Shown: positions 3,314-32,065, counted from the stretch's first letter. The stretch: 64,000 nucleotides of DNA from Escherichia coli (GCF_048403405.1 NZ_CP183129.1), one strand, 5' to 3'. Program-made: numbers and translations. The notes: generated by a model from the sequence alone, not told the origin.

Positions 3314-4993
3314 TTATTTAATCCACATAACCTGCCAGGGGCGCAGCGTTATTTCATTACCCAATATATCAACTTCACTAATCAGATCCCGACCGTGCAG
3401 ATCAGTAATATTTATATGCTGAATATTTTCACTGACATTAAACAATCCTGTCAGACAATTACCATCCGCGTTGTTTCTTTGAATACGCATTACGGATGAA
3501 TTAACCGTGTCGATGGTAAAATCATTATCCGGATGAAACTCGTTATGACTGCAACGAAGTGTAATTAAACGCGACAACTGATGATATACCGCATGCCTTA
3601 ATGTATCTTCATCGTTCAGTTCTCGGGTTATCTCTTCATTGTGATATTTTTTACGGTTAATCGCACGGTTATATCCCAGTTTTTCGACACCTGCGTAATC
3701 ATTACGCGAGCCAAGAATACTTTGAATATATATCGCTGGCACACCGGGGAAACTTAACAAAATCGCATGGGCAAGGATAAACCTGGCACACCGCTCTTCA
3801 TCGCTACTCTCGCGGCGGCTTAACGCATCCATATAGGTGACATTTATTTCATAGGGACTGCGCGTACCGTCGGGATTATTTTTCCAGTTTACTAATGCAC
3901 CTTCCTGCTGTAACGCCTCGACCAGCGCTAATATTTCGCTTTCTGGTAACAAGCCACGCAGTGGGTTCAGCCCGATGCCATCGTGAGAGGCGAGGAAGTT
4001 AAACCAGGTGGTGTTGCTGGAAGGTAGTGTCAGGTTTTGCGCCCACGCACAAAGCGCCTCAACGTTCTGTTTTTGCACCGCATGCAGCACCAGCGGCGGC
4101 AGCGAGAACTGGTACACCATATGCGCTTCGTCATCGCCTTCGCCAAAGTAAGCAATGTTGTCTTTATGCGGAACATTGGTCTCGGTAATGATCACTGTAC
4201 CTGGTGCTACGTCATCAATAATCGACCGTAACAGCTTGATAATCAGATGTGTTTTTTCCAGATGGATGCAGCTTGTTCCTGGCTCTTTCCACATAAAGCC
4301 AACGGCATCCAGCCGGACATATTCTGCGCCCTTTTCCAGGTAGCACAGCAATACATCCACCATCGCCAGCAACACTTCAGGGCTACGGTAATTGAGGTCA
4401 ATTTGATCGTCGCTAAAGGTGGTCCATAAATGGCGCGTGGAATTATCATCCATTTGAAACGGTGTTAATAGCGGTAACGCACGCGGACGGGTGACGGCGC
4501 TGAGATCGGTTTGCGGATCAACAGCAATAAAAAAATCTTCAAAACCTGGCTGCTGTTGTAAATAGTTTTTAAACCATTCACTTTTTGCCGACATATGGTT
4601 GCAGACAAAATCAAACATTAAATGACTGCATTCACCGAGTTGCTGAATATCCTGCCACTCCCCCGCTTCACTGGCGACCTGATGATAATCAATTACCGAA
4701 AACCCATCATCAGATGACCATGGATAAAAAGGTAATAAATGAACATGTGAAAAAATGCTTTGCAGCCATTGATGGTAAAACTGATTAAATGTGGGTAGTG
4801 GTTTTAAATCATTACTGTGAAATTGATCAGCATAGGTAATTAACACGACATCACTTTCATCCCAGTGTTTTTTACGTCGCTGTGTAATTAATCGTTTCGC
4901 ACTCTCAAGACGCGTTACAAGTTTCTGTAAATGAGTCGCGGTAAATGTTCCACCGTAGATTTCGTCCAGGTAATCCGTAATTTTCTGTTTCAT
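3314..4993 (-). CDS. ycjM: GH13 sucrose-phosphorylase-like enzyme (glucosylglycerate phosphorylase)
   Basis: ORF track 3314..5020; start refined to internal ATG at 4991-4993 giving 559 aa, matching YcjM. Confidence 0.82.
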   Translation of the reverse strand: MKQKITDYLDEIYGGTFTATHLQKLVTRLESAKRLITQRRKKHWDESDVVLITYADQFHSNDLKPLPTFNQFYHQWLQSIFSHVHLLPFYPWSSDDGFSVIDYHQVASEAGEWQDIQQLGECSHLMFDFVCNHMSAKSEWFKNYLQQQPGFEDFFIAVDPQTDLSAVTRPRALPLLTPFQMDDNSTRHLWTTFSDDQIDLNYRSPEVLLAMVDVLLCYLEKGAEYVRLDAVGFMWKEPGTSCIHLEKTHLIIKLLRSIIDDVAPGTVIITETNVPHKDNIAYFGEGDDEAHMVYQFSLPPLVLHAVQKQNVEALCAWAQNLTLPSSNTTWFNFLASHDGIGLNPLRGLLPESEILALVEALQQEGALVNWKNNPDGTRSPYEINVTYMDALSRRESSDEERCARFILAHAILLSFPGVPAIYIQSILGSRNDYAGVEKLGYNRAINRKKYHNEEITRELNDEDTLRHAVYHQLSRLITLRCSHNEFHPDNDFTIDTVNSSVMRIQRNNADGNCLTGLFNVSENIQHINITDLHGRDLISEVDILGNEITLRPWQVMWIK

Positions 4994-5160
4994 GTTGCCT
5001 TTCCGTGGTAGCGGTCCCATGAAACGAGAGACTACTCCGCAGAAAATAAACTGTCAATTGAGTACAAGGGTTTTAGTCACGCAGGAAATCATTTTTTACC
5101 AGGGAAAAAGCGTATTTGTGAGCTGACGCAAATAATCTATGGGGATGTAAATAAGGTGTG

Positions 5161-5190
5161 ACAGAAAAAGTAAACGGCGCATAAGCGCCG
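5161..5190 (-). terminator. Intrinsic terminator downstream of pspE
   Basis: GC hairpin cggcgc-ataa-gcgccg followed on the minus strand by a T-rich run, directly after the pspE stop. Confidence 0.5.
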
Positions 5191-5206
5191 CTTAGGGTGG
5201 ATTCTT

Positions 5207-5521
5207 TTAACCTTTGACCTTCGGCATTGCGATGTCTTTCAGGCCACCGGCGTTCTCAACGTGGGTATATCCCATCTCGCTAAGGATCTCTTTTGCCTGC
5301 CCTGACTGGCGTCCGGCATTGCAATACACTTTCACGGTGTCGTTTTTATCCGGAACGGCGGTGGCAATGCGCTCTTTTACTTCCTTCAGGGGAATATTGA
5401 TGGCTCCCTGAACGTGCTCTTGCTGATACTGCTCTGGAACACGAACATCGATCCAGTGTTCAGCGGCGAAAACGGGCAGTGAAAACACCAGTGTCAGAGC
5501 AAGTAAGCCTTTTTTAAACAT
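5207..5521 (-). CDS. pspE: Periplasmic rhodanese (thiosulfate sulfurtransferase)
   Basis: 104-aa ORF with signal peptide and rhodanese active-site Cys (CNAGRQS); last gene of psp operon. Confidence 0.9.
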   Translation of the reverse strand: MFKKGLLALTLVFSLPVFAAEHWIDVRVPEQYQQEHVQGAINIPLKEVKERIATAVPDKNDTVKVYCNAGRQSGQAKEILSEMGYTHVENAGGLKDIAMPKVKG

Positions 5522-5595
5522 GTAAGCGTCCTTCTATGGATGAAAATTGCCATCCATAATATGCCTTAGCTTTAACAATTTTTGCGAAACTCCCC

Positions 5596-5817
5596 TCACC
5601 TTTTATAACGCTGCGCCAGTTTATTGGCAGCCCGACTTAACAGCGGTTCCAGCGCCACGGCCAGCAACATTTTCAGTGGTCGGCGAGCAACTGATTTTAT
5701 CGCCCAGCCAGCTACACCCGCCGGGCCATAGCGCAGTGCGGTAAGAAGTACCAGCTTGCCTGCTAATTTGAAACCAGGCTTCACCTTTTGCCCGGCCTGT
5801 TGCCAGCGAGTATTCAT
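5596..5817 (-). CDS. pspD: Phage shock protein D
   Basis: ORF track 5596..5829 (GTG start); refined to ATG at 5815-5817 giving 73 aa MNTRWQQ..., matches PspD. Confidence 0.8.
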
Positions 5818-5825
5818 AACTTTCC

Positions 5826-6185
5826 TCACAGTTGACGGAAACGGCTACGTAACGTGAAAGTATCGGAAGTGACATAACGTTCCATCTCGCGTAAAGGCGT
5901 TTCACTTGCCGCCAGTTCACGGTCGACTTCATCCAGCAATTCGCTGCTGGAAGGTAGCTGCTCACCAAAGGCCATGTTGTCCGGCATTGGATCAAGCGCA
6001 AATGACAAAATGATGTAAGCAACCAGGGTAAACAGCGCCAGACCGAAGAAAATCGACAGCACCACCAGGATACGCACCAGTTTTACCGGTACATCAAAAT
6101 AGTTGGCAATCCCGGCGCAGACGCCGCGTACCATGCCCCGCTGTGGAATACGCCATAATTTTTTATTGAGATTAATGCCCGCCAT
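5826..6185 (-). CDS. pspC: Phage shock protein C
   Basis: 119-aa ORF, single TM segment, overlaps pspB stop; operon order. Confidence 0.9.
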
Positions 6186-6409
6186 TAGCGATCCCTCCAG
6201 TTCGGATGTTCTGCATCAAGAATGGATTCCAGCGCCTGAATACGTTCGCGCATCCGTTTTGCTTCATCAGCCAGTTGCGCTAATCGCTGCTGCTCACTTT
6301 GCGACAATTCACTGCGACCAGAACGATTGCTGTAATGCAGCCATAACCAGATCGGTAAAACAAACAGCACAAAAATGGTTAACGGAATAGCCAGAAATAG
6401 CGCGCTCAT
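6185..6409 (-). CDS. pspB: Phage shock protein B
   Basis: 74-aa ORF with N-terminal TM helix; operon order. Confidence 0.9.
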   Translation of the reverse strand: MSALFLAIPLTIFVLFVLPIWLWLHYSNRSGRSELSQSEQQRLAQLADEAKRMRERIQALESILDAEHPNWRDR

Positions 6410-6462
6410 AAGGACTCCTTAGACGATGAGCGGCGGCGCGTTCGGACGCCGCCGGGATGTTA

Positions 6463-7203
<741 letters not shown>

Positions 7204-7297
7204 TTATCTTTTTGATTTATAAAGATCTGATTGAAGAATCAACAGCAACATGCCAGGATGAGTTAGCGAATTACACTAACAAGTGGCGAATTTCATC

Positions 7298-8275
7298 ATG
7301 GCAGAATACAAAGATAATTTACTCGGTGAGGCGAACAGCTTTCTCGAAGTGCTGGAACAGGTTTCGCATCTCGCACCGCTGGACAAACCGGTGCTCATCA
7401 TCGGCGAGCGCGGCACAGGTAAAGAGCTCATTGCCAGCCGTCTGCATTATCTCTCCTCCCGTTGGCAGGGGCCGTTTATTTCCCTTAACTGCGCGGCGTT
7501 AAATGAAAATCTGCTGGATTCCGAACTGTTTGGTCACGAAGCGGGCGCGTTTACCGGTGCGCAAAAACGTCATCCAGGGAGATTTGAACGTGCCGACGGC
7601 GGTACGCTATTTCTTGATGAACTCGCTACGGCACCGATGATGGTGCAGGAGAAATTATTGCGCGTGATTGAGTACGGTGAACTGGAGCGCGTCGGCGGCA
7701 GCCAGCCATTGCAGGTGAATGTACGGTTGGTATGCGCGACGAATGCCGATCTCCCGGCGATGGTCAATGAAGGTACTTTTCGCGCTGACCTACTCGACCG
7801 GCTGGCTTTCGATGTAGTGCAACTGCCGCCCCTGCGCGAGCGCGAAAGCGACATTATGCTGATGGCAGAACACTTTGCCATTCAGATGTGTCGGGAAATC
7901 AAGCTGCCTCTGTTCCCGGGGTTTACGGAGCGCGCCAGAGAAACATTGCTGAATTATCGCTGGCCGGGAAATATTCGTGAATTGAAAAACGTGGTGGAAC
8001 GTTCAGTGTATCGCCACGGCACCAGCGATTATCCGCTTGATGACATCATTATTGATCCCTTTAAACGGCGTCCGCCTGAAGACGCTATCGCCGTTTCAGA
8101 AACCACCTCGCTTCCAACACTGCCGCTGGATTTACGTGAGTTTCAGATGCAGCAGGAAAAAGAGTTGCTGCAACTCAGTTTGCAACAAGGGAAATATAAC
8201 CAGAAGCGCGCGGCTGAATTGCTGGGGTTAACCTATCATCAGTTCCGCGCGTTGTTGAAAAAGCACCAGATTTAG
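7298..8275 (+). CDS. pspF: Sigma-54-dependent transcriptional activator PspF
   Basis: AAA+ sigma-54 activator motifs (GERGTGKE, GAFTGA) and C-terminal HTH; start refined to ATG 7298 (325 aa). Confidence 0.9.
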   Translation: MAEYKDNLLGEANSFLEVLEQVSHLAPLDKPVLIIGERGTGKELIASRLHYLSSRWQGPFISLNCAALNENLLDSELFGHEAGAFTGAQKRHPGRFERADGGTLFLDELATAPMMVQEKLLRVIEYGELERVGGSQPLQVNVRLVCATNADLPAMVNEGTFRADLLDRLAFDVVQLPPLRERESDIMLMAEHFAIQMCREIKLPLFPGFTERARETLLNYRWPGNIRELKNVVERSVYRHGTSDYPLDDIIIDPFKRRPPEDAIAVSETTSLPTLPLDLREFQMQQEKELLQLSLQQGKYNQKRAAELLGLTYHQFRALLKKHQI

Positions 8276-8296
8276 CGAAGTTGGGCAATACAACTT

Positions 8297-8377
8297 GCCG
8301 GATGCGGCGTGAACGCCTTATCCGGCATACATAATCAATACGTCGTTTGCAGGCCTGATAAGCGCAGCGTATCAGAC
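8297..8377. repeat. REP/BIME-like palindromic elements in the pspF-puuE convergent intergenic region
   Basis: GCCGGATGCGGCGTGAACGCCTTATCCGGC (8297-8326) plus a second GCCTGATAAGCGCAGCGTATCAG palindrome; typical E. coli REP sequence style. Confidence 0.45.
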
Positions 8378-8394
8378 ATTATTGCGTTGGGCTA

Positions 8395-9660
8395 TTAATC
8401 GCTCAGCGCATCCTGCAAAATTTTCATTGCCGCATCGAATTGCGCATCCGGGATGGTCAGCGGATACAGGAAACGAATCACGTTGCCGTATGCGCCACAG
8501 GTCAGTAGAAGCAGCCCCTGCGCCAGCGCGCGTTGCTGGATTTTCTGTGCAATCGCCGCTGACGGCTCGCCCGTTTGCGGATCGTTAAACTCTGCCGCAA
8601 TCATAGACCCCAGACCGCGTACCGCCGCGATGGCCGGAACGCTTTCTTTGGCATCAATCAACGTGTTTGTCAGGCGCTGGCCCAGTTGATTCGCGCGTTC
8701 ACAGAGTGATTCTTTGTCGATAATGTTGAGCACAGCGTGCGCGGCAGCCACCGCCAGCGGGTTCCCGGCGTAGGTACCACCCAACCCGCCCGGCGCGGGC
8801 GCGTCCATAATATTCGCGTTACCGACCACGCCCGAAAGCGGCATCCCGCCCGCGAGGCTTTTCGCCATCGTCATTAAGTCCGGCTTATCGGCGTAGTGAT
8901 CCATGGCAAACAGTTTACCGGTACGCGCAAAGCCGCTTTGCACTTCATCGGCAATCATCACAATGCCGTGCTCGTCGCACAGGCGGCGAATGGCGGCAAC
9001 CAGCTCTGTTGGTGCAACGTTGAAACCGCCTTCGCCCTGCACCGGTTCGAAAATAATCGCCGCCACCTGCTTCGCTTCAATGTCCGATTTAAACAAGCGT
9101 TCGATGGCGTCGAGAGAGTCCTGCGTTGAAACGCCATGTAAATCTGACGGATAAGGTACGTGATATACCGAACCGGGGAACGGGCCGAAGCCGATTTTGT
9201 ACGGCGCGACCTTTCCGGTCAGCGCCATGGTCATATATGTACGACCGTGGAAGCCGCCGCTAAACGCAATCACGCCAGGGCGTCCGGTATGGGCGCGGGC
9301 GATTTTCACCGCGTTCTCCACCGCTTCCGCACCGGTGGTGAAGAACGCAGTTTTAGCCTGCCCGCTCACCGGGGCAAGGGCGTTAATTTTCTCCGCCAGG
9401 GTGACGTAGCTTTCGTACGGCACAATCTGATACGCCGTGTGGGTAAACTGTTGCAATTGCTGCTCCACCGCCGCGACCAGATCAGGGTGGCGATGCCCGG
9501 TATTCAGCACCGCAATGCCTGCGGCGAAATCGATGTATTCGTTGCCCTCTACATCCTTCAGCGTGGCGTTTTCTGCCGACTGGGCGAAGAAGTTACACAT
9601 CACGCCAACCCCGCGTGGGGTAGCAGAAAGACGACGCTGATGGAATTCATTGTTGCTCAT
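8395..9660 (-). CDS. puuE: 4-aminobutyrate aminotransferase (PLP-dependent)
   Basis: 421-aa class-III aminotransferase ORF; synteny in puu cluster. Confidence 0.88.
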   Translation of the reverse strand: MSNNEFHQRRLSATPRGVGVMCNFFAQSAENATLKDVEGNEYIDFAAGIAVLNTGHRHPDLVAAVEQQLQQFTHTAYQIVPYESYVTLAEKINALAPVSGQAKTAFFTTGAEAVENAVKIARAHTGRPGVIAFSGGFHGRTYMTMALTGKVAPYKIGFGPFPGSVYHVPYPSDLHGVSTQDSLDAIERLFKSDIEAKQVAAIIFEPVQGEGGFNVAPTELVAAIRRLCDEHGIVMIADEVQSGFARTGKLFAMDHYADKPDLMTMAKSLAGGMPLSGVVGNANIMDAPAPGGLGGTYAGNPLAVAAAHAVLNIIDKESLCERANQLGQRLTNTLIDAKESVPAIAAVRGLGSMIAAEFNDPQTGEPSAAIAQKIQQRALAQGLLLLTCGAYGNVIRFLYPLTIPDAQFDAAMKILQDALSD

Positions 9661-9697
9661 GTTTCACACCTTTTGACTCTTCACTGTTAATCGGAAA

Positions 9698-10978
9698 TTA
9701 AACGCCCAGACGATCGCGCAGGCTGTAATAAGCCGCGCCCATCGCGGTAAACGGAACGCGCAGCGTGCGCCCGCCGGGGAACGGGTAATGCGGCAGATTG
9801 GCGAAGGCGTCGAAGCGCTCGGCGTCACCGCGCAGCAGTTCAGCAATCAAACGCCCGGCGAGGTGGGTACAGGTGACGCCGTGGCCGCTGTAGCCCTGCA
9901 TGTAGTAGATGTTGGTATCGAGGCGACCAAACTGCGGCATGCGTGACAGGGTCAGCAGGAAGTTGCCCGTCCAGCGGTAATCAATTTTCACGCCCTTCAG
10001 TTGCGGGAAGGTTTTCAGCAGTTTCGGCACCACAAGGCGCTCAACATCGTCCGGGTCGCGTGCGCCGTAGACCACGCCGCCGCCGTACAGCAGGCGGTTA
10101 TCGGCAGTCAGACGGTAGTAATCAAGCAGATAGTTACAGTCTTCAACGCAGTAGTTTTTCGGGATCAGCGAACGGGCTAAATCATCGGAAAGCCGCTCGG
10201 TGGTGATCACCTGCGTGCCGCACGGCATGCTGCGTTTCGCCAGTTCCGGTTCCACTTTATCGCCCAGATACGCATTCCCGGCGACAATCACGTATTTCGC
10301 CGTCACCTGACCTTTGGCAGTTCGCACAACGGCTGGCGTGGTGTGCTGGATCTGCGTCACGGCAGAAAGTTCATACACGCGCCCGCCGTTCAGGCGGATG
10401 GCGTCCGCTTCGCCAATGGCGAGGTTTAGCGGATGAATATGCCCACCGCTGTGATCCAGCAGCGCACCAGTGTAGCGATCGCTGGCGACCTCGCGGCGAA
10501 TAGCGTTGGCGTCCAGCAGCTCCAGCTGTTTATTGCCGTAGCGTTCCCAGTTCTCTTTCTGCTCTTCGAGTGTGGCGAGCTGTTTATCATTCATCGCCAC
10601 AAACAGGCCGCCGGGGCGGTAGTCGCAGTCAATCTGATAACGTTTGATACGTTCGCGGATGATCTCGCCGCCTTCGAACATCATGCTGCCGAGCATACGG
10701 GCGGTGTCCATGCCGTAGTTTTTTTCAATGACGTCGATGTCGCGGCTGTAGGAGTTCACAAGCTGCCCGCCGTTGCGTCCGCTTGCGCCGAAGCCGATGC
10801 GTGAGGCTTCAAGAACCACCACGTCAAAGCCCGCTTCCGCCAGATGCAGCGCGGAAGAAAGCCCGGTATAGCCGCCGCCGACCACGCAAACATCGCAGGA
10901 AATCGACTCATTCAGCGTGTCGAATGGTGCGTATTTATTCGCACTGGCGGCGTAATAACTGCTGGTATGTTCGGTCAT
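9698..10978 (-). CDS. puuB: Gamma-glutamylputrescine oxidase (FAD-dependent)
   Basis: 426-aa ORF with N-terminal FAD-binding GxGxxG (VVGGGYTG); synteny. Confidence 0.88.
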   Translation of the reverse strand: MTEHTSSYYAASANKYAPFDTLNESISCDVCVVGGGYTGLSSALHLAEAGFDVVVLEASRIGFGASGRNGGQLVNSYSRDIDVIEKNYGMDTARMLGSMMFEGGEIIRERIKRYQIDCDYRPGGLFVAMNDKQLATLEEQKENWERYGNKQLELLDANAIRREVASDRYTGALLDHSGGHIHPLNLAIGEADAIRLNGGRVYELSAVTQIQHTTPAVVRTAKGQVTAKYVIVAGNAYLGDKVEPELAKRSMPCGTQVITTERLSDDLARSLIPKNYCVEDCNYLLDYYRLTADNRLLYGGGVVYGARDPDDVERLVVPKLLKTFPQLKGVKIDYRWTGNFLLTLSRMPQFGRLDTNIYYMQGYSGHGVTCTHLAGRLIAELLRGDAERFDAFANLPHYPFPGGRTLRVPFTAMGAAYYSLRDRLGV

Positions 10979-10979
10979 T

Positions 10980-12467
10980 TCAGGCCTCCAGGCTTATCCA
11001 GATAGTTTTCAGTTCGGTGAATTTTTCAAGGGCGTGCAGGGATTTGTCGCGACCGTTGCCGCTCTGCTTATAGCCGCCAAACGGCACGGTCATATCGCCG
11101 TCGTTGTAGTTATTGACAAAGACGGAACCGGCTTTCAGGCGACGGCTCATGCGGTGCGCGCGGGAGAGGTCGCGCGTCCATACTGCCGCGCCAAGTCCGT
11201 ACTGGCTGTCGTTAGCAAGCTGTAGCGCCTGTTCTTCTGATGTGAAACGCGTGACCACCAGCACTGGACCGAAAATCTCTTCGCGGCTTAAGGACGCATC
11301 CGGGTCTACATCCACAAAGATCGTCGGGCCGATGGCGGCAGCCAGCTCGGCGTTACGGCCATCCAGCAGCAGTTGCCCTTTGCTTTCGCCTTCACGAATA
11401 AAGCTATGGACCGAGTCGGCGTGGGCGCAGTCGATTAAGGTGCCCATGGTGGTTGCGGGATCAAGTGGATGGCCCGGCTGCCAGTTTTGCGCCTGCTGTT
11501 TTAACAGGTCTAAGAATTCATCGGCGATGCTCTCTTCCAGCAACAGGCGCGTTCCGGCGATACACACCTGCCCCTGGTTGTAGAAAATGCCCGCAGCGGT
11601 CGCGCTCGCCGCTTTTTGCAAATCCGGACAGTCAGCGAAAACGATGTTGGCGCTTTTGCCGCCCGCTTCCAGCCAGACGCGTTTCATGTTGCTGTCGCCT
11701 GCATCTTTCAGCAGCTGTTTCCCGGTGCGGGTTGAGCCAGTAAAGGCGATGGCATCGATATCGTTATGACGCGACAGCGCCTGCCCCGCTTCATGACCAA
11801 AACCCGTCACCACGTTCAACACGCCATCCGGCAGCCCCGCTTCTTTCGCCAGCCCCGCGAGACGAATCGCACTGAGCGGTGATTTTTCAGACGGTTTTAG
11901 GATCACGCTGTTTCCCGCCGCCAGCGCCGGGCCGAGTTTCCAGCAAGTCAGCAGCAGCGGGAAGTTCCACGGCACGATGGCGGCAATCACGCCGACCGGT
12001 TCACGCACGATCATCGCCAGCTCATGGCTACTGGTGGTCGCCACTTCGCCATACACTTTGTCGATCGCTTCGGCGTACCAGCGAATGGCGCGCGCCGCGC
12101 CGGGAATATCATCACGCAGACTGTGACGAATCGGTTTGCCGGTGTCGAGCGTTTCCAGCAGCGCCAGTTCTTCAGCGTTAGCTTCCATTAAATCGGCGAG
12201 TTTATTCAGCACCGCTTTACGCTTAGCCGGAGAAGAGAGTGACCAGTCGCCACGTTCAAACACGCCGCGTGCTGCGCTCACCGCACGGTCAATATCGACG
12301 CTCTTGCCGCGGGCAATATTCGCCAGCGGTGCCTGGGTGACCGGATCAACGGTTTCAAAAGTTTCATTTTCCGCCGCAGCAGTATATTCACCGTTAATAA
12401 ATAAGCGGGTTTCAATGGCGAGACTTAACGCTTTATCCTGCCAGTAAGCCAGATGATGAAAATTCAT
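10980..12467 (-). CDS. puuC: Gamma-glutamyl-gamma-aminobutyraldehyde dehydrogenase (NAD-dependent aldehyde dehydrogenase)
   Basis: Aldehyde dehydrogenase family ORF with catalytic Cys region; start refined to ATG at 12465-12467 (495 aa), preceded by GGAG. Confidence 0.85.
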   Translation of the reverse strand: MNFHHLAYWQDKALSLAIETRLFINGEYTAAAENETFETVDPVTQAPLANIARGKSVDIDRAVSAARGVFERGDWSLSSPAKRKAVLNKLADLMEANAEELALLETLDTGKPIRHSLRDDIPGAARAIRWYAEAIDKVYGEVATTSSHELAMIVREPVGVIAAIVPWNFPLLLTCWKLGPALAAGNSVILKPSEKSPLSAIRLAGLAKEAGLPDGVLNVVTGFGHEAGQALSRHNDIDAIAFTGSTRTGKQLLKDAGDSNMKRVWLEAGGKSANIVFADCPDLQKAASATAAGIFYNQGQVCIAGTRLLLEESIADEFLDLLKQQAQNWQPGHPLDPATTMGTLIDCAHADSVHSFIREGESKGQLLLDGRNAELAAAIGPTIFVDVDPDASLSREEIFGPVLVVTRFTSEEQALQLANDSQYGLGAAVWTRDLSRAHRMSRRLKAGSVFVNNYNDGDMTVPFGGYKQSGNGRDKSLHALEKFTELKTIWISLEA

Positions 12468-22450: not shown

Positions 22451-23257
22451 ATGATCGAAACGCTGCTTGAAGTGCGTAATTTAAGTAAAACGTTCCGCTA
22501 CCGGACCGGCTGGTTTCGTCGTCAGACCGTAGAAGCGGTAAAACCCTTGAGCTTTACGCTACGTGAAGGCCAGACACTGGCGATCATTGGTGAGAATGGT
22601 TCTGGTAAATCCACGCTGGCAAAAATGCTGGCGGGAATGATAGAACCTACCAGCGGCGAGTTATTGATTGACGATCATCCGCTGCATTTTGGCGATTATT
22701 CCTTCCGCAGTCAGCGTATTCGCATGATTTTTCAGGATCCTTCGACCTCGTTGAATCCCCGTCAACGTATCTCGCAAATTCTGGATTTTCCACTGCGTCT
22801 GAACACCGATCTGGAACCTGAACAGCGTCGCAAACAGATTATTGAAACGATGCGTATGGTTGGGCTGCTACCGGATCACGTCAGTTACTATCCGCATATG
22901 TTGGCACCCGGGCAAAAACAGCGTCTGGGGCTGGCGCGCGCGCTGATATTGCGCCCAAAAGTCATTATTGCCGATGAAGCCCTCGCCTCACTGGATATGT
23001 CGATGCGTTCGCAGTTGATTAATCTGATGCTTGAGTTACAGGAAAAACAGGGCATTTCGTATATTTATGTTACCCAGCATATCGGAATGATGAAGCACAT
23101 TAGCGACCAGGTGCTGGTGATGCATCAGGGCGAGGTTGTCGAGCGAGGCAGCACCGCCGATGTGCTGGCATCGCCGCTGCATGAACTCACCAAACGGCTG
23201 ATCGCCGGTCATTTTGGCGAGGCATTGACGGCGGATGCGTGGCGTAAGGACCGTTAG
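22451..23257 (+). CDS. sapF: Sap ABC transporter ATP-binding protein
   Basis: 268-aa ORF with Walker A (GENGSGKST); last gene of the operon. Confidence 0.9.
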   Translation: MIETLLEVRNLSKTFRYRTGWFRRQTVEAVKPLSFTLREGQTLAIIGENGSGKSTLAKMLAGMIEPTSGELLIDDHPLHFGDYSFRSQRIRMIFQDPSTSLNPRQRISQILDFPLRLNTDLEPEQRRKQIIETMRMVGLLPDHVSYYPHMLAPGQKQRLGLARALILRPKVIIADEALASLDMSMRSQLINLMLELQEKQGISYIYVTQHIGMMKHISDQVLVMHQGEVVERGSTADVLASPLHELTKRLIAGHFGEALTADAWRKDR

Positions 23258-23265
23258 TGTTTTGC

Positions 23266-23302
23266 ACCTCATCCTGACAGGGGCCCCCCTCAGGATGAGG
23301 TG
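23266..23302. terminator. Bidirectional stem-loop between convergent sapF and the MFS transporter gene
   Basis: Perfect 13-bp inverted repeat CACCTCATCCTGA / TCAGGATGAGGTG around a G/C-rich loop, filling the 49-bp gap between two convergent stop codons. Confidence 0.55.
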
Positions 23303-23306
23303 TTCA

Positions 23307-24470
23307 TTACTTTTGATTGTCGATTCTGGTGAGAGCAACCAGCAATGCCAGCGTATAACACACCGTAATTGCCAGACTCATTTTTAACAGTGTTTCTCCG
23401 CCAATTCCCGACAATGGCGCGGCTATACCGCCGAAGACAAACATGCTCATCCCCATCAACGCAGACGCCGTTCCAGATTCCTGCGTCCCTACTGCACTCA
23501 TAGCCTCTGCCCCGCCAACAGTGCCGATGCCGCTACAAAATGCGATGGTGAAAAATAATGCCACCAGTGCCGGAATGGGCAATTGTATCCATGCGCATAA
23601 GACCGTGAGCAATGCACACAAAATTGCCGCTATCAGGCCACCTCGCAACAATGTCATCGCGTTAATCCGTCGCGCCAGGCGCGAGAAGATCCATGAAGCA
23701 ATGATAAGTCCGATGCCGTTAAGGCCAAACACCAGGCTAAATTGCATTGGATTAAAGCCAAATTCCTTCTGCAACACGAACGACGAAGAGCCGATATATG
23801 CAAACAAACCGGCCAGCATAAAACTTTGAATCAGGCAAAAGCGCATAAAACGGCGGTTCTGCACCACGCTTCGTCCGGTTAATAGCAATGATGAGCCCCT
23901 TTTATTTTCTGGCAAGGTCTCATTAATAAATAACAGGCAGCCCAGCAACAGTACGGTGCTAATTTCAGCCATTACCCAGAATAAAGTGCGCCAGTCAAAA
24001 GTGCTGACAATGTACCCGCCCAGCACTGGCGACAACACCGGTGCCAGGCCATTCACCGTCATTAACAGCGCAAAAAACTGGGTCAACGTTACTCCCTGAT
24101 ATTTGTCACGAGCAATAGAACGAGAGAGCACCGAACCACCCGCCCCCGCGATCCCTTGAATAAAACGCCAGACCACCAGCCAGTAAATATTGTTCGTTGT
24201 CGCGCACAAAATGGAAGAAACAATAAACAATAGCAACGACAAGATTAACGGACGTTTACGCCCTATTTTGTCGCTCAGAGGGCCAAATAACAGTTGTCCG
24301 ACGCCAAGACCGATCAGTGATGCAGTCAGCGTTAATTGCGTTATGGTCGTGGTTGCCGCCAGTTGCTCAGACATCTCCGGCAAAGCCGGCAAATAAAGAT
24401 CGGTACACATCGGGCCGATACCGGCTAAAAGACCAAGAATCAATGCCCATGAAAGAGAGACTCTAGCCAT
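23307..24470 (-). CDS. MFS drug/H+ antiporter, Bcr/CflA (DHA1) family, 12 TM
   Basis: 387-aa ORF with MFS signature region GPLSDKIGRKRP and 12 predicted TM segments; 8 bp downstream of the OMF gene. Confidence 0.8.
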   Translation of the reverse strand: MARVSLSWALILGLLAGIGPMCTDLYLPALPEMSEQLAATTTITQLTLTASLIGLGVGQLLFGPLSDKIGRKRPLILSLLLFIVSSILCATTNNIYWLVVWRFIQGIAGAGGSVLSRSIARDKYQGVTLTQFFALLMTVNGLAPVLSPVLGGYIVSTFDWRTLFWVMAEISTVLLLGCLLFINETLPENKRGSSLLLTGRSVVQNRRFMRFCLIQSFMLAGLFAYIGSSSFVLQKEFGFNPMQFSLVFGLNGIGLIIASWIFSRLARRINAMTLLRGGLIAAILCALLTVLCAWIQLPIPALVALFFTIAFCSGIGTVGGAEAMSAVGTQESGTASALMGMSMFVFGGIAAPLSGIGGETLLKMSLAITVCYTLALLVALTRIDNQK

Positions 24471-24478
24471 ATTATTCC

Positions 24479-25852
24479 TTACTTGAGTGATGACATGCCG
24501 CCGCCCAGCGACTGCCAGAGCGTGATTCGGTTTGTAAAATCAGTCAGTTGTAGTGCCAGCAGCGCCTGCTGTGCGCTCCACAAGCTGCGCTGCGCCGTCA
24601 ACACGGTCAGGTAATCACCAACACCCGCCTGATAGCGACGCAAGCCAACATCGACCGTTTGTTGCTCAGCTTTAACATACTGGCGCTGTGCATCCAGTTG
24701 CTCTTCAAGCGTGGTCCGCCGCGCCAGTGCGTTAGCGACATCTTTAAATGCGCTCTGAACGGTTTTTTCATAGGTGGCAATGAGTCCACGCTTTTGTGCT
24801 TCTGCGTAACGAAGCTGCGCCAGATTACTTCCGCCAGTGAACAGCGGTAATGTGACCGATGGCGTAAATGACCAGATCTGCATTCCGTGGCTGAACAACG
24901 ACGACAATGCTTCACTGCCAACACCAGCGCTGGCAGTCAGCGAAATCGTCGGAAAAAAGTTAGCCCGCGCCGCGCCAATATCGGCATTGGCGCTCTTCAA
25001 ATTATGTTCCGCTTCCTGGATATCCGGGCGACGCAGCAGAACGTCAGATGACACTCCCGCAGGAACCAGACTTATCATCTGTTCCGGCAGGCTTTCCAGT
25101 GTTCCCGGTAGCAAATTTTCCTCAAGCGTTGTACCTGCCAGTAAGTTCAGCGCATTTTTATCCTGCATCACTTGTGTCTGATAGCTGGCAACGCTGGCGC
25201 GCGCTTGCTGATAAACACTCATCGCCTCACTGACATCTGTCGCTGCCGCCGTGCCAACCTGTTGCTGGCGCTGGATAATTTTCAATGAGTTTTCTGCACT
25301 GGCCATCGTTTCTTTTGCCAGGGCCAGGTTGCTGTTATCAGCCGCCAGTGTCAGCCAGGCGGTGCTGATTTCAGCAATCAGCGTTAAACGAGTGTTCTGG
25401 GCTGTAAATTCACTGGCAAGCCAGGTTTCCCGCGCCGCCCGAGATAAACTCTGATTACGACCAAACAGATCTAACGTAAAACTGGACACCGTGCCGTCAG
25501 CCTCGGCAGTGGTTTCCGTACCATTCGCCAGCGAACGACTGCGGGTTGAACTTAAGGCCGCATTCACCGTCGGGAATAACGACGCATTAGTTTGCCCATA
25601 GAGCGCCCGTGCTGAGTCAATATCAGCAATCGCTTTTTGCACATCGCGGTTACTGTTCAGTGCAATAGTCACCACCTGCTGCAATCGGGGATCGTGGATC
25701 ACCTGCTGCCAGTCATGGCTGATTGCCTTTCCCTGGCCCTGTGCTCCCGGCAAGGTCGCCGGGATTGGGGATTCAGGCGTGCTGTAGTGGGGCTCGAGCG
25801 AGACACATCCCGCACTCAACAGCACCAGAAAAATAAGAGAACGACGCAACAT
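24479..25852 (-). CDS. Outer-membrane efflux lipoprotein, NodT/OprM family
   Basis: 457-aa ORF with lipoprotein signal (LLSAGC) and OprM-like outer membrane factor repeats; 3 bp downstream of the RND gene. Confidence 0.85.
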   Translation of the reverse strand: MLRRSLIFLVLLSAGCVSLEPHYSTPESPIPATLPGAQGQGKAISHDWQQVIHDPRLQQVVTIALNSNRDVQKAIADIDSARALYGQTNASLFPTVNAALSSTRSRSLANGTETTAEADGTVSSFTLDLFGRNQSLSRAARETWLASEFTAQNTRLTLIAEISTAWLTLAADNSNLALAKETMASAENSLKIIQRQQQVGTAAATDVSEAMSVYQQARASVASYQTQVMQDKNALNLLAGTTLEENLLPGTLESLPEQMISLVPAGVSSDVLLRRPDIQEAEHNLKSANADIGAARANFFPTISLTASAGVGSEALSSLFSHGMQIWSFTPSVTLPLFTGGSNLAQLRYAEAQKRGLIATYEKTVQSAFKDVANALARRTTLEEQLDAQRQYVKAEQQTVDVGLRRYQAGVGDYLTVLTAQRSLWSAQQALLALQLTDFTNRITLWQSLGGGMSSLK

Positions 25853-25855
25853 AAC

Positions 25856-28800
25856 TTACTCCTGACGGCGCGGTTTACCGGCAAACAAACGTTTCACCAG
25901 TACAAAAAACAGAGGAACAAAGAAAATAGCCAGCAACGTAGCGGTCAGCGTACCGCCAATAATGCCCGTACCAATGGCGATGCGGCTGTTCGCCCCTGCG
26001 CCGGTTGCTATCGCCAGCGGCATTACCCCCGCAATAAACGCCAGCGAGGTCATGATGATTGGGCGTAAACGAGTCTGCGCCGCGCGTAATGCCGCACGAC
26101 TCAAGGAATAGCCCTCTGCAACCGCCGCTTCAGCAAATTCCACAATCAGAATGGCGTTTTTCGACGACAAGCCGATAGTGGTTAATAGCGCCACCTGGAA
26201 GTAAACATCGTTGTTTAAATCACGCATCCAGGCCGCCAGCGCCGCGCCAAGAAGCCCCAGAGGGATCACCAGAATGACCGAGAACGGGACTGACCAGCTT
26301 TCGTACAGTGCTGCAAGGCAGAGGAAAACCACCAGAATAGAAACTGCATACAGACTCAATGCCTGACCGCTGGCCAGTTTCTCCTGCAATGACAAACCAC
26401 TCCAGGCCCAGGTTGTTCCCGCAGGAAGACTGTTTGCCAGTTCCTCCATTTTTGTCATTGCATCGCCGGAACTAAAGCCAGTCGCATTTTCCCCCTGAAT
26501 TTCATAGGCTGCAGAACCGTTGTAGCGCACCAGTCTTTCCGGTCCATACAGCCAGCGGGTGGTTGCAAAAGCAGAGAATAGTGTCATGGCGTTATCGCTA
26601 CCGCGCACAAACCATTTACCTAAGTCTGACGGCGTGGAACGAAATTCACTGTCGCCCTGAATGTAGACTTTTTTCACACGACCACGGTCAATAAAGTCAT
26701 TCACATAAGTACCGCCCCACGCACTGGACAGGGTGTCGGTGACATCATTCAAACTCAACCCTAATGACACCGCTTTATTACTATCAATATCTACCTGCAA
26801 TTGCGGCATTTGTGGCAAATCATTGGCACGCACAGAATGTAACTCCGGACTTTGATTCGCTTTTTCTATCAACTGATTACGCATTTGCAGTAGTGTTTCG
26901 CGATCGGTTCCACCGTTAGCTAACAATTCAAACGTAAAACCATTGCTTTGCCCCAGCCCATCAACGGCTGGCGGCGTCATCGCAAATACCGTGGCATCAC
27001 GAATTGTGCCCAGCTCTTTGGTTGCCCGTAGGGCGATAGCCTGGGCGGTGTTTTCTGCCCCTTTACGTTGAGACCAGTTTTTCAACGAAACAAACGCCAT
27101 CCCGGTGTTCTGTCCGCTGCCGCTAAAACTGAAACCATCAACGGTAAAAATGACATCGGTATTTGCTTTCTCATTAATCAGGAACCAGTCAACAATCTGG
27201 CGATTCACTTCTGCTGTACGGGCAGCGGTCGCCCCGGCCGGCAGCGTGTACTGCACCATGATTTCGCCCTGGTCTTCAGTGGGTAAGAAACTGCCCGGCA
27301 GTTTCCACATCATCAGGGCCATTCCACCACCCAGTACGACATAAAGCCCCATCGTTCGAGCAGCACGGCGCAGGACATAAATTACGCCTCGCTGATATTT
27401 ATCTTCAGTACGGCGGTAAAAGCGGTTAAATGCGCCGAAAAAGCCTTTTTTATGTGGCGGAACATGCTGGAGGACGGAACCGCACAGGGCGGGAGTCAAG
27501 GTCAATGCCACTACCACGGAAAGCAGCATTGCGGAGATAATGGTTATCGAAAACTGACGATAAATTACCCCCGTAGATCCCCCAAAGAAGGCCATAGGCA
27601 GGAATACGGCTGACAACACCAGCGCAATGGCAACCAGTGCGCCAGAAATCTCGCCCATTGATTTTTCCGTGGCTTCACGCGCGGGCAACCCTTCGTCACG
27701 CATAATACGTTCGACGTTCTCCACCACCACAATGGCATCGTCCACCAGCAAGCCGATCGCCAGCACCATTGCAAACAACGTCAGGGTATTAATCGAATAG
27801 CCAAACAACGCAAGAACGCCGAATGTGCCCAGCAAAACGACGGGGACAGCTAACGCCGGAATCAGTGTGGCACGCAGGTTTTGCAGGAATAAATACATCA
27901 CGCAAACCACCAATACGATGGCTTCAAACAGCGTCTGAATTACGTCCTCTACAGAGATTTTAATAAATTCAGTGCTGTCTTTCGGGTATGCGATGTCGTA
28001 TCCCTGCGGCATGTTCCGCTGGAATTCGGCAATCTTATCCTTGACCAGCGTCGCCGTATTCAGCGCATTCGCACCGGGCGAAAGCATTACAGCAACCCCG
28101 GCAGACGGGTGACCGTTAAGTTTGCCGATAGCGGTATAATCTTCACTGCCCATCTCAACGCGAGCCACATCTTTTATACGAACAACTGCGCCGTCTGACT
28201 GGCTTTTCACGATAATATTTTTGAACTGATCCACCGTCTGCAAGCGAGACTGCGCACGTACCGTTGCGGTCAGTTGCTGAGTATTCGGTGAAGGCAATGC
28301 CCCTATTTTCCCGGCAGTAACCTGCACGTTTTGCGCTTCAATAGCACTTTGCACGTCTGAAGGCATTAGCGAGTAAGACGCCAGTTTGGCCGGGTCAAGC
28401 CAGATGCGCATAGCGTATTCCGCGCCAAAGACTTGCAGACTCCCCACACCTTCAACACGCGCCAGCGGGTCCTGAACGTTACTAACCAACCAGTCGGCGA
28501 TATCCGAACTGGAGGCTTTGTCAGTGGTGTCATACACGGCAGCAATCAGCAAAAAGTTGCTTTGTGATTTCTCCACCGTAACACCCGTTTGCTGCACTTC
28601 GCTGGGTAGGCGCGACTCCGCCTGCTGAATTTTATTCTGCACCTGAACCTGTGCAGTATCTGGATCGGTACCTTGTTCAAAGGTCACATTAATACTGACC
28701 GAACCATCAGAGCTGCTGGTTGAGCTGAAATAGAGTAAATTATCAAGCCCAGTGAGTTGTTGCTCGATAACCTGAGTCACGCTGTTCTCCAGCGTTTCGG

Positions 28801-28963
28801 CAGAAGCACCAGTATAAGTGGCTGAAATTTTAATGGTCGGTGGCGCAACGTCAGGATATTGCGCGACGGGCAATGTGCGAATAGCCAGAATCCCCGCCAA
28901 CATAATCAAAATGGCGATAACCCAGGCAAAGACCGGGCGGCGAACAAAAAAGCGCGAAAACAT
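25856..28963 (-). CDS. RND multidrug efflux permease (AcrB/MexB/HAE1 family)
   Basis: 1035-aa ORF with clear similarity to AcrB/MdtF but not identical to any K-12 RND pump I can recall; 12 TM plus large periplasmic loops. Confidence 0.9.
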   Translation of the reverse strand: MFSRFFVRRPVFAWVIAILIMLAGILAIRTLPVAQYPDVAPPTIKISATYTGASAETLENSVTQVIEQQLTGLDNLLYFSSTSSSDGSVSINVTFEQGTDPDTAQVQVQNKIQQAESRLPSEVQQTGVTVEKSQSNFLLIAAVYDTTDKASSSDIADWLVSNVQDPLARVEGVGSLQVFGAEYAMRIWLDPAKLASYSLMPSDVQSAIEAQNVQVTAGKIGALPSPNTQQLTATVRAQSRLQTVDQFKNIIVKSQSDGAVVRIKDVARVEMGSEDYTAIGKLNGHPSAGVAVMLSPGANALNTATLVKDKIAEFQRNMPQGYDIAYPKDSTEFIKISVEDVIQTLFEAIVLVVCVMYLFLQNLRATLIPALAVPVVLLGTFGVLALFGYSINTLTLFAMVLAIGLLVDDAIVVVENVERIMRDEGLPAREATEKSMGEISGALVAIALVLSAVFLPMAFFGGSTGVIYRQFSITIISAMLLSVVVALTLTPALCGSVLQHVPPHKKGFFGAFNRFYRRTEDKYQRGVIYVLRRAARTMGLYVVLGGGMALMMWKLPGSFLPTEDQGEIMVQYTLPAGATAARTAEVNRQIVDWFLINEKANTDVIFTVDGFSFSGSGQNTGMAFVSLKNWSQRKGAENTAQAIALRATKELGTIRDATVFAMTPPAVDGLGQSNGFTFELLANGGTDRETLLQMRNQLIEKANQSPELHSVRANDLPQMPQLQVDIDSNKAVSLGLSLNDVTDTLSSAWGGTYVNDFIDRGRVKKVYIQGDSEFRSTPSDLGKWFVRGSDNAMTLFSAFATTRWLYGPERLVRYNGSAAYEIQGENATGFSSGDAMTKMEELANSLPAGTTWAWSGLSLQEKLASGQALSLYAVSILVVFLCLAALYESWSVPFSVILVIPLGLLGAALAAWMRDLNNDVYFQVALLTTIGLSSKNAILIVEFAEAAVAEGYSLSRAALRAAQTRLRPIIMTSLAFIAGVMPLAIATGAGANSRIAIGTGIIGGTLTATLLAIFFVPLFFVLVKRLFAGKPRRQE

Positions 28964-30084
28964 CAGGCGTTGCCTCCATTAGCCTGAACTTCAACAGCCT
29001 TGACGGTCTGCCCTGAAGTGACTTTGGCAGAACCTTCAACAATCAGTCGGTCGCCGTTGTGCAGGCCGTTCAGCACCAGCCATTTATCACCATACGTTTC
29101 TCCCGTTTCGAGCGTTCGCTGCTCTACTTTATTGTCTTTATTCACCACCAGCGCAGTTGCATTGCCTTTAGCATCGCGCGTGACGCCCTGTTGCGGCGCG
29201 AGAATAGCGTCTTCCATCACGCCTTCATCGACACGAGCGCGAACAAACATTCCCGGTAATAACTGCTGTTGTGGATTGGGGAAAATCGCCCGTAATGTCA
29301 CCGAACCGGTAGACTCATCTACAGCGACTTCGGTGAGTTCCAGACGCCCTTTTTCGCTGTAGGTTGTGCCATCTTCCAGAATAAGTGAGACGCTCATGGT
29401 GTCACTGTTGGTCGCCAGTGACTGTTTACGCAGACGTAATAAATCGACACTGGAGCGAGTGAGGTCGACATACATTGTCTCCAGACCACGAATAGTCGTT
29501 AACGCTGTATCTTGCGACGCGGTCACCAGTGCGCCAGGGGTTACCGACGAAATGCCAATTCGCCCTGAAATCGGTGCGGTTACCGTGGTCCAGTCAAGAT
29601 TAATGCGCGCAGTTTCCAGCGCGGCTTTTTTCGCCTCTACACTGGCTTTATCTTGTGCACAGGTAGACTGAGCATCATCAGCATCCTGTTGTGAAACACC
29701 GTTCTCTTTCACCAGTCGGGCATAACGCTGCGCTTTCTGGCAATCGGCTTTTACCAGTGCCTGTGCTTGTTGTAATGCTGCCCGAGCTTCATTCCATGCA
29801 GCCTGATAACTGACCGCATCAATCTGGTAGAGAGGCTGTCCAGCCTTGACCAGATCCCCTTCCTTAAATAAGCGTTTCTGGATAATTCCCCCAACCTGCG
29901 GACGTACTTCAGCACTGAGCGCAGCACTGGTGCGTCCGGTTAATTCACTGACTACCGAGACCGGTTGAGATTTGACTGTAACAACGCCGACTTCTGTTTC
30001 TGACGGGGATGAATTGTTACTTTGCGTATTATCACAACCAGATAAGAGCAGCATTGCCACTACAGATGTTGCTATATACTTCAT
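28963..30084 (-). CDS. RND efflux membrane fusion protein (periplasmic adaptor lipoprotein)
   Basis: ORF track 28963..30117; start refined to ATG 30082-30084 (373 aa) preceded by GGAG; lipobox LLSGC; AcrA/MexA-like; stop overlaps the RND start. Confidence 0.85.
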   Translation of the reverse strand: MKYIATSVVAMLLLSGCDNTQSNNSSPSETEVGVVTVKSQPVSVVSELTGRTSAALSAEVRPQVGGIIQKRLFKEGDLVKAGQPLYQIDAVSYQAAWNEARAALQQAQALVKADCQKAQRYARLVKENGVSQQDADDAQSTCAQDKASVEAKKAALETARINLDWTTVTAPISGRIGISSVTPGALVTASQDTALTTIRGLETMYVDLTRSSVDLLRLRKQSLATNSDTMSVSLILEDGTTYSEKGRLELTEVAVDESTGSVTLRAIFPNPQQQLLPGMFVRARVDEGVMEDAILAPQQGVTRDAKGNATALVVNKDNKVEQRTLETGETYGDKWLVLNGLHNGDRLIVEGSAKVTSGQTVKAVEVQANGGNA

Positions 30085-30131: not shown

Positions 30132-30232
30132 ATATGTCAGGGATATTCAGTTATAACGAACCCGCATCGCGAAATGAATTTCGCAATGAAATAAGGGGGA
30201 TTAATATCCCCCGCTATTGGTTAATTCTGTTC

Positions 30233-30799
30233 TTATTTATTTATCAACATACTAACAATATCCTGATATATTTCCTGCAGATGTTGTGGATCGCTTTTTT
30301 GCGGTGTTAAACGACGATAAACCGTACCTTCCATCATGGTAGCAAACACTTCAACGCAGCAACGAATGTGCTCGTCGCTAAGATGGGGATGCATTCTTTT
30401 CATATGTGCACAACCGTTAGCGAACATTCTGGCGTCAGCTTCTTCAAGCATTGCCATAACCCGCGGGTTGCGTGTGGCTTCTGCAGCCACTTCCAGCATC
30501 AGCGCGTCGTCGTCCTCATTTAAGGATTTACGCAAGGCAAGGACTTCCGGGAAGTGATCGGTACGCGCGTCAATGTCCATTTGGGCAATACGAAAGTCGA
30601 TGATACGGCGAACCATCTCTTCAATAATGGCGTCTTTGTTGGCGAAGTAACGATATATCTGACCCACGCTAAGCTGAGCTTCGCTGGCAATTTGCGACAT
30701 ACTGGCGGCATGAAACCCGCAGCGACGAAAACACCGACGGGCGGCGTTAATGATTTCATCCTGACGCTGTTTGTGGCGTATCTCCAGCTTGCTGGTCAT
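30233..30799 (-). CDS. TetR/AcrR-family transcriptional regulator
   Basis: ORF track 30233..30898; start refined to ATG 30797-30799 (188 aa) preceded by AGGAGA; N-terminal TetR HTH (SMSQIASEAQLSVGQIYRYFANKD). Confidence 0.8.
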   Translation of the reverse strand: MTSKLEIRHKQRQDEIINAARRCFRRCGFHAASMSQIASEAQLSVGQIYRYFANKDAIIEEMVRRIIDFRIAQMDIDARTDHFPEVLALRKSLNEDDDALMLEVAAEATRNPRVMAMLEEADARMFANGCAHMKRMHPHLSDEHIRCCVEVFATMMEGTVYRRLTPQKSDPQHLQEIYQDIVSMLINK

Positions 30800-31276
30800 T
30801 TCTGTCTCCTGGCCTATCACTTGGTGAGAATGATCGTTCTCATTTTTGCTGATTATACGTTTCTCCAAAGTAATGGAAAGTATTTTTATCTTATTCATGG
30901 TGCATATTCTGATAATGAAGAGATTGTGGAGATTATGTGAAGATAGTTGACAATATTAAGTTGGGGTCAATTCATCAGAAAGGCTGCTACTTGTTGTCGC
31001 CAGTTCTGTTTTCATCATCAAACTTATCGGAGCTAATACGAATAGTTTCAGAGTCAGATTCTATAAGATATTCCCCCAACCTACCCCTTGCAGGCGTCAA
31101 GAGTAGATAACGCAAAATGCTCTGTACCGCAGCTTCTCTCCGGTACAGAAAGCGCAACTATAGCCACCCACAGCCAGGTTGATTATAATAACCGTTTATC
31201 TGTTCGTACTGTTTACTAAAACGACGAATCGCCTGATTTTCAGGCACAACAAGCATCAACAATAAGGATTAAAGCT

Positions 31277-32065
31277 ATGGGTTTTCTTTCCGGTAAGCGC
31301 ATTCTGGTAACCGGTGTTGCCAGCAAACTGTCCATCGCCTACGGTATCGCTCAGGCGATGCACCGCGAAGGAGCTGAACTGGCATTCACCTACCAGAACG
31401 ACAAACTGAAAGGCCGCGTAGAAGAATTTGCCGCTCAATTGGGTTCTGACATCGTTCTGCAGTGCGATGTTGCAGAAGATGCCAGCATCGACACCATGTT
31501 CGCTGAACTGGCGAAAGTTTGGCCGAAATTTGACGGTTTCGTACACTCTATTGGTTTTGCACCTGGCGATCAGCTGGATGGTGACTATGTTAATGCCGTT
31601 ACCCGTGAAGGCTTCAAAATTGCCCACGACATCAGCTCCTACAGCTTCGTTGCAATGGCAAAAGCTTGCCGCTCCATGCTGAATCCGGGTTCTGCCCTGC
31701 TGACCCTTTCCTACCTTGGCGCTGAGCGCGCTATCCCGAACTACAACGTTATGGGTCTGGCAAAAGCGTCTCTGGAAGCAAACGTGCGCTATATGGCGAA
31801 CGCAATGGGTCCGGAAGGTGTGCGTGTTAACGCCATCTCTGCGGGTCCGATCCGTACTTTGGCGGCCTCCGGTATCAAAGACTTCCGCAAAATGCTGGCT
31901 CATTGCGAAGCCGTTACCCCGATTCGCCGTACCGTTACTATTGAAGATGTGGGTAACTCCGCGGCATTCCTGTGCTCCGATCTCTCTGCCGGTATCTCCG
32001 GTGAAGTGGTCCACGTTGACGGCGGTTTCAGCATCGCTGCAATGAACGAACTCGAATTGAAATAA
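31277..32065 (+). CDS. fabI: Enoyl-ACP reductase (NADH)
   Basis: 262-aa [29 protein letters not shown]...; SDR family; matches FabI. Confidence 0.93.

Follow-up and report, generated by a model that had tools for sequence, protein, structure and literature searches.

An MFS exporter gene that directly follows a complete set of tripartite RND pump genes raises two questions, namely whether the two pumps are made together and whether they act on a shared substrate. Such a gene lies in a 64,000-nucleotide stretch of Escherichia coli DNA (GCF_048403405.1, NZ_CP183129.1; hereafter the window), and an earlier note, drawn from the sequence alone, described it as fused into the 3′ end of an RND operon, considered the arrangement unusual and suggested a two-step export route in which the MFS protein works across the inner membrane and the RND pump from the periplasm outward. 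This gene is eefD, which comes fifth and last in eefRABCD, an operon already known from E. coli. What the note observed is correct, though nothing out of the ordinary, since both eefD and the operon have been described before. In our joint reading, which we hold with high confidence, eefD closes an EefR-repressed operon and encodes a stand-alone DHA1 pump that would work beside a separate EefABC pump, with the TetR-MFS pair as the probably older element.

The eefRABCD operon in Escherichia coli

The 387-aa ORF of eefD begins with ATG and is called identically by RefSeq/PGAP (WP_000135016.1). ORFs and NCBIfam assignments together give five genes on one strand in the order TetR, adaptor, RND, OMF and MFS, situated between fabI and sapF and transcribed toward sapF (Table 1). 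The order is the same in annotated E. coli MS 69-1, and the position between fabI and sapF has also been reported for E. coli (PMC12817139). The adjacency of the MFS gene to the RND operon described earlier is thus real, whereas the fusion is not, the MFS gene being a separate, appended ORF; likewise, the span first assigned to it (23307-24478) includes 8 nt of spacer beyond the gene end at 24470.

All four transport proteins exceed curated NCBIfam subfamily cut-offs: the adaptor that of TIGR01730 (273 bits vs 94.9, with MexA and AcrA as the best named models), the RND permease that of TIGR00915 (1549 vs 940), the outer-membrane factor that of TIGR01845, NodT (373 vs 210), and EefD that of TIGR00710, Bcr/CflA (280.8 vs 200.9, over residues 7-378 of 387). 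The PGAP start of eefA at 30084 yields a lipobox, LLSGC, which reads as a proper lipoprotein signal, and the alternative start at 30117 is probably wrong.

Table 1. Features of the eef locus and its flanks, in window coordinates
Feature	Position	Strand	Basis or remark
sapF	22451-23257	plus	convergent with eefD
Strong hairpin in the eefD-sapF gap, probable bidirectional terminator	23265-23302		RNA folding
eefD, DHA1 (Bcr/CflA-type) MFS efflux transporter, predicted 12-helix	23307-24470	minus	TIGR00710, 387 aa
eefC stop and eefD ribosome-binding site, TAAGGAATAAT	24471-24481	minus	read from sequence
eefC, NodT-family outer-membrane factor	24479-25852	minus	TIGR01845, 457 aa
eefB, RND permease	25856-28963	minus	TIGR00915, 1035 aa
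eefA, periplasmic adaptor lipoprotein	28963-30084	minus	TIGR01730, 373 aa
eefR-eefA spacer, two hairpins	30150-30232	minus	fold and terminator scan
eefR, TetR-family repressor	30233-30799	minus	188 aa, PGAP WP_000202113.1
EefR operator, 18-bp palindrome TGAGAACGATCATTCTCA	30825-30842	minus	exact match to published operator
Predicted sigma-70 promoter, TTTCCA, 16 nt, TATAAT	30852-30879	minus	promoter scan
fabI	31277-32065	plus	divergent from eef genes

The eefRABCD operon was first described in 2008 in E. coli SMS-3-5. An analysis of >19,000 assemblies found it always whole where present (PMC12817139, Microbial Genomics 2026; preprint 2024), and its experimental dissection has been published (PMC12482432, Virulence 2025); both studies already use the name eefD for the MFS gene. 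EefABC and EefD represent a seventh RND system and a linked MFS pump, occurring in E. coli phylogroups B2, D, E, F and G and absent from K-12. Set beside the published descriptions of eefRABCD in E. coli SMS-3-5, ATCC 25922 and ATCC 35218, the locus has the same site, gene order, strand and EefR operator; it shows no difference of substance from the published operon, of which the window holds one instance.

Several complete E. coli genomes, including MS 69-1, match the 8.4 kb around eefD with 100% identity. A search of 5426 complete E. coli genomes placed the MFS gene, taken by itself, in 2043 of them and the RND and OMF genes likewise in 2043 (about 38%), with nucleotide identities of 98-100% between the locus and the copies in those 2043 genomes. 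The arrangement can therefore be called unusual only by comparison with K-12, as about 38% of complete E. coli genomes carry the operon. Elsewhere in the window, the GC content at 8001-12000 is 0.565-0.583, against a window mean of 0.506.

Some records carrying eefRABCD are labelled as plasmids (L018, H40, H42 and H43), of which H42 (252.6 kb, E. coli) lay outside the examined set. In L018 (NZ_CP141085.1), a 385-kb "plasmid" typed as non-mobilizable, the operon is surrounded by fabI, yciW, rnb, sapABCDF, ymjA and pspF-pspE, and H40 (4.9 Mb) and H43 (5.4 Mb) have the size of whole chromosomes. On these grounds plasmid-borne spread was rejected for the records examined. Their copies resemble chromosome that was mislabelled or misassembled, and the published case for plasmid-mediated spread (PMC12482432) is weakened accordingly.

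Transcription and translation of eefD

The predicted promoter upstream of eefR is the best promoter-like site of the region, matching at 10 of 12 positions, and in Kluyvera, Pseudocitrobacter, Klebsiella and Raoultella a conserved version of its block precedes the leading gene of the cluster; a GFP reporter has also located a promoter upstream of eefR (PMC12482432). The operator palindrome, which begins 9 nt downstream of the -10 box, occurs once in the window against 0.01 sites expected by chance, and its recognition by EefR is supported by EMSA with point mutants (PMC12482432). Throughout the fetched loci that include the upstream region, one operator copy, exact or with ≤3 mismatches, is always present upstream of the first cluster gene. 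In the mechanism we propose, this single promoter would drive the whole operon, and EefR, seated on the palindrome just downstream of the -10 box, would repress it. Although the longest TetR ORF (221 aa) starts at 30898, this start is too early, because the longer ORF would contain both promoter and operator; the correct start is at 30799, where AGGAGA stands before it.

The eefR-eefA spacer folds with -27 kcal/mol (z = -3.9), a value equalled by none of 200 shuffled sequences. Its first hairpin (30195-30212; GGGGGAT-ATTA-ATCCCCC followed by TTATTTCATT) is terminator-like, is matched by the terminator scan as well, and has a counterpart with a T-run at the equivalent position in Pseudocitrobacter, Klebsiella, Raoultella and Kluyvera. 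This hairpin may act as an attenuator that limits how many transcripts run on past eefR into the pump genes. Read-through into eefA has been seen by RT-PCR, and expression constructs reportedly needed sequence upstream of eefA (PMC12482432); given the hairpin and the construct requirement, a second promoter or an attenuation step could lie ahead of eefA.

Further downstream, eefA and eefB overlap by 1 nt (TGATG), and eefB and eefC are separated by 3 nt (stop TAA, GTT, ATG). Between the eefC stop (TAA, 24481-24479) and the eefD start (ATG, 24470-24468) lie 8 nt (24478-24471, TAAGGAATAATATG), so that both gaps given in the earlier note, 8 bp for OMF-MFS and 3 bp for RND-OMF, are exact. A Shine-Dalgarno sequence of its own, AAGGA (24480-24476), from which eefD would be translated, stands 5 nt ahead of the ATG and overlaps the eefC stop; ribosomes finishing eefC could therefore re-initiate on eefD, a coupling predicted from the sequence. 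A simple consensus scan of the eefC-eefD junction returned no promoter-like or terminator-like site, and the RNA across it folds no better than shuffled sequence (z = +0.5).

Co-transcription of the MFS gene with the RND genes, suspected from the packing of the genes, is established, because RT-PCR products from E. coli ATCC 35218 span every junction, including eefC-eefD, and all four pump genes are derepressed when eefR is deleted, eefA-D by 27- to 83-fold and eefD by 27-fold (PMC12482432). The RT-PCR across the OMF-MFS junction that had been put forward as a check was thus already in print. At the far end of the operon, the 49-nt eefD-sapF gap contains a hairpin with a 13-bp outer stem (-31 kcal/mol, z = -5.05; 0 of 200 shuffles fold as well), which probably ends both convergent transcripts, eefD and sapF. 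A U-run is absent on the eefD strand, so termination at this site is a prediction.

The eefC-eefD linkage and the TetR-MFS pair in other genera

A scan of one genome per species with the EefD protein as sole query reached close relatives only (four Escherichia loci and one Pseudocitrobacter locus), so more distant contexts were obtained from protein searches followed by contig look-ups. Escherichia, Klebsiella, Raoultella and Pseudocitrobacter all retain the MFS-OMF-RND-MFP linkage, which answers the question of its conservation in other genomes; in K. quasipneumoniae, K. pneumoniae and Raoultella the gene after eefC is an orthologue of eefD (68%). The eefC-eefD spacer measures 8 nt in E. albertii, E. 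whittamii and two other Escherichia loci, 18 nt in locus L013, 45 nt in Klebsiella (L009 8956-9000), 48 nt in Raoultella (L011 8953-9000) and 157 nt in Pseudocitrobacter (L006 8844-9000). The TAAGGA..ATG block of the window recurs, with the 8-nt spacer, in the four other Escherichia loci, and the longer Klebsiella spacer has it at its 3′ end. Because other genera keep the adjacency with longer spacers, the tight 8-nt junction is specific to Escherichia and the linkage itself is older.

The tripartite pump of Klebsiella (Enterobacter) aerogenes and K. pneumoniae is orthologous to EefABC of E. coli. EefA, EefB and EefC are 79, 87 and 74% identical to the proteins of the fetched Klebsiella loci, in which one K. 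pneumoniae gene is annotated as eefA, and the published values for K. aerogenes, whose cluster was described without eefR and eefD, are 78.1, 87.3 and 74.9% (PMC12482432). The Klebsiella cluster differs from that of E. coli in its chromosomal site, between an acetyltransferase gene and murQ-murP, a site that it shares with the Raoultella, Pseudocitrobacter and Kluyvera loci; the flanks of L013 are different. Klebsiella and Raoultella have lost eefR and retain the promoter/operator block. Their longer eefC-eefD spacer also contains, unlike that of E. coli, a GC-rich 8-bp hairpin with one compensatory pair change between the two genera, for which no function is claimed because its stability does not exceed that of shuffled sequence (z = 0.0 and -0.6) and the compensatory change is a single one. 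About 150 nt of the Pseudocitrobacter spacer consist of repeat-like palindromes, and their GGGAGAGGG/CCCTCTCCC element also has copies upstream of eefR in that locus.

Two further observations concern individual contigs. In L013, which is a read-assembled contig, eefB is split into ORFs of 748 and 273 aa (4506-7614) by a frameshift or an assembly error, and eefD is intact. L014 (3314-4528) and L015 (2895-4109) each carry a solo eefD-like gene with 76% identity to EefD and 85% to its L013 counterpart. A Tn3-family transposase gene lies about 1 kb upstream of it, the gap between them contains apparent IS-transposase remnants, and neither eefABC nor eefR is present.

Among the sampled loci, a handful that provides a lead rather than a survey, no case of eefABC without eefD was found; absence of the MFS gene from orthologous loci, which had been named as counterevidence, does not occur in them, and if anything the opposite is seen. 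Kluyvera, whose locus has the chromosomal surroundings of the Klebsiella one, lacks eefABC, and eefD comes directly after eefR. Its EefD shares 88% identity with the protein from Pseudocitrobacter, where the cluster is complete, and the Kluyvera state would most simply be a secondary loss of the RND cassette. Since the Kluyvera eefR-eefD spacer, of which the 5′ part resembles the eefR-eefA spacer and the 3′ part the eefC-eefD spacer, fits an insertion as well as a deletion, this call rests on the EefD identities and the shared chromosomal context.

An RND pump is absent in Erwinia persicina, where an EefR-like gene (59% identity) and the MFS gene (47%) share a 4-nt overlap and an operator-like palindrome comes after a TATAAT box. 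A Pantoea dispersa plasmid displays the order operator, adaptor, RND, OMF, TetR and MFS, with a perfect palindrome (TGAGAATGATCATTCTCA) and proteins that are 46, 53, 42, 35 and 47% identical to EefA, EefB, EefC, EefR and EefD, respectively. A related cluster on contig L021 has its MFS gene convergent to the RND genes, and the TetR gene is directly beside the MFS gene both there and on the Pantoea plasmid. In these few loci, with an Erwinia MFS protein of 47% identity and unproven orthology among them, the TetR-MFS pair (eefR-eefD) appears to be the stable core; it probably came first, and the RND cassette was added later. The pair recalls TetR-MFS pairs of the tetR-tetA type, in which the repressor gene adjoins the exporter gene and a palindromic operator sits at the promoter; the Kluyvera and E. 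persicina versions are exactly so, whereas eefR of E. coli is co-directional with the pump genes and first in the operon, with the RND cassette intervening.

EefD beside EefABC

EefD belongs to the same family as EmrD, MdfA and Bcr, the single-component DHA1 antiporters of E. coli. To our knowledge, the genes of these three lie outside RND operons in K-12, unlike eefD. Because it misses the equivalog cut-offs for Bcr (NF008314; 227.9 vs 303), EmrD (163 vs 479) and TcaB (316 vs 475), EefD is not an orthologue of any of them; it is also under the MdfA equivalog cut-off. Among solved structures, EmrD (E = 3e-26) and MdfA come closest, and the published identity to Bcr is 30% (PMC12482432). Motif A, GPLSDKIGRKRP (GPLSDKIGRK), can be read between helices 2 and 3, and PVLSPVLGG is present; the subfamily pattern comprises about 390 aa, 12 helices, motif A (GxxxDrxGrk) and an antiporter motif that ends in GG in helix 5. 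A crude hydropathy scan resolved about 10 separate peaks, not a clean 12; a 6+6 helix arrangement has been modelled (PMC12817139). Among Escherichia species, dN/dS of eefD is 0.04-0.08, the same range as for eefA and eefC; judged by these ratios, eefD evolves under purifying selection, as its neighbours do.

We propose that EefD would act alone in the inner membrane as a proton-driven DHA1 antiporter with 12 helices, carrying amphipathic or cationic compounds into the periplasm from the cytoplasm or the inner leaflet, and that EefABC would be a separate, AcrAB-TolC-like tripartite pump that expels its substrates from the periplasm to the outside, across the outer membrane. The two would have a common regulator and overlapping substrates, and any sequential action would amount to generic pump interplay with no dedicated physical coupling. 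In DH5alpha delta-acrB, pBReefD alone raised the MICs of sanguinarine, tetracycline, erythromycin, chloramphenicol, clindamycin and fusidic acid by 2- to 4-fold and eefABC raised those of the same six compounds by 8- to 32-fold, while the MICs with pBReefABCD were exactly those with pBReefABC, so that synergy was nil (PMC12482432). In the other study, addition of eefD to eefABC lowered ethidium accumulation marginally and not significantly, deletion of eefD slowed ethidium efflux, and eefD had no effect on MICs (PMC12817139). The two studies thus disagree on whether EefD or EefABC alter drug MICs at all.

Other readings of the locus can be weighed against these data. That eefD is expressed independently from a promoter of its own, its closeness to eefC reflecting genome compaction only, is very unlikely: the E. 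coli spacer is 8 nt long, a consensus scan of the minus strand found no promoter-like site in the 3′ part of eefC, each locus has one operator, and the RT-PCR products cross the junction and eefD is derepressed along with eefA-C (PMC12482432). Partial uncoupling could occur where spacers are longer, as in Klebsiella, Raoultella and Pseudocitrobacter, and the MFS gene of L021 must have its own promoter because it is convergent to the RND genes. MFS-based tripartite pumps such as EmrAB-TolC and EmrKY-TolC exist, and the place of eefD directly after the adaptor, RND and OMF genes would suit an EefD that docks to EefA and EefC as an alternative inner-membrane partner; we nevertheless regard this as improbable in the extreme. 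EefD is a 387-aa DHA1 protein that reaches 76 bits with the EmrB/DHA2 model TIGR00711 (cut-off 230), to which its N-terminal half alone aligns, and EefA is an AcrA/MexA-type adaptor that EmrA-type models matched weakly. Kluyvera and Erwinia have eefD with neither an adaptor nor an OMF gene, and EefD alone confers resistance (PMC12482432). An EmrAB-like tripartite role for EefD was ruled out on family grounds.

The shared-substrate route suggested in the earlier note is plausible in a generic sense, as a sequential passage through two pumps, and the drug tests showed no synergy. Its stricter form, a dedicated pathway in which EefD moves a specific cytoplasmic substrate, perhaps an endogenous metabolite, to the periplasm and EefABC carries it onward in an obligatory pairing, strikes us as unlikely. 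The comparison of single with combined pumps that the earlier note had recommended exists as published plasmid expression, in which eefD on top of eefABC gave neither a multiplicative nor an additive gain for the six compounds and EefD was active alone (PMC12482432); the gain in ethidium accumulation was not significant (PMC12817139). Moreover, because Kluyvera and Erwinia have the eefR-eefD pair without an RND pump, EefD can do without EefABC. What speaks for the pathway is the co-regulation of both pumps from one operator, the overlap of their substrate lists, the purifying selection on eefD, and the persistence of the MFS-RND linkage through the orders R-ABC-D, ABC-D, ABC-R-D and ABC-R beside a convergent D, together with the established principle that single-component and tripartite pumps cooperate (Lee et al. 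2000; Tal and Schuldiner 2009; cited in PMC4462101).

We therefore retain the reading of eefD as the last gene of an EefR-repressed operon, encoding a pump that would stand alone beside EefABC. Mutations in eefR can switch this operon on and raise resistance when AcrB is absent. The comparative addition made here is that the linkage reaches beyond Escherichia, with spacers that vary from 8 to 157 nt. As a tentative possibility, eefABC might have been recruited into an older, self-sufficient eefR-eefD module with its palindromic operator, in which EefD and EefR set the substrate and the inducer and to which EefABC would have been added to complete export across the outer membrane. Such recruitment would explain why eefD is not lost where eefABC is kept among the sampled lineages, why Kluyvera has lost eefABC and retains eefR-eefD, and why the TetR and MFS genes are adjacent in the more distant clusters of the Pantoea plasmid and L021. 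If it is true, a real two-step synergy would be predicted for the natural substrate, even though none is seen with drugs.
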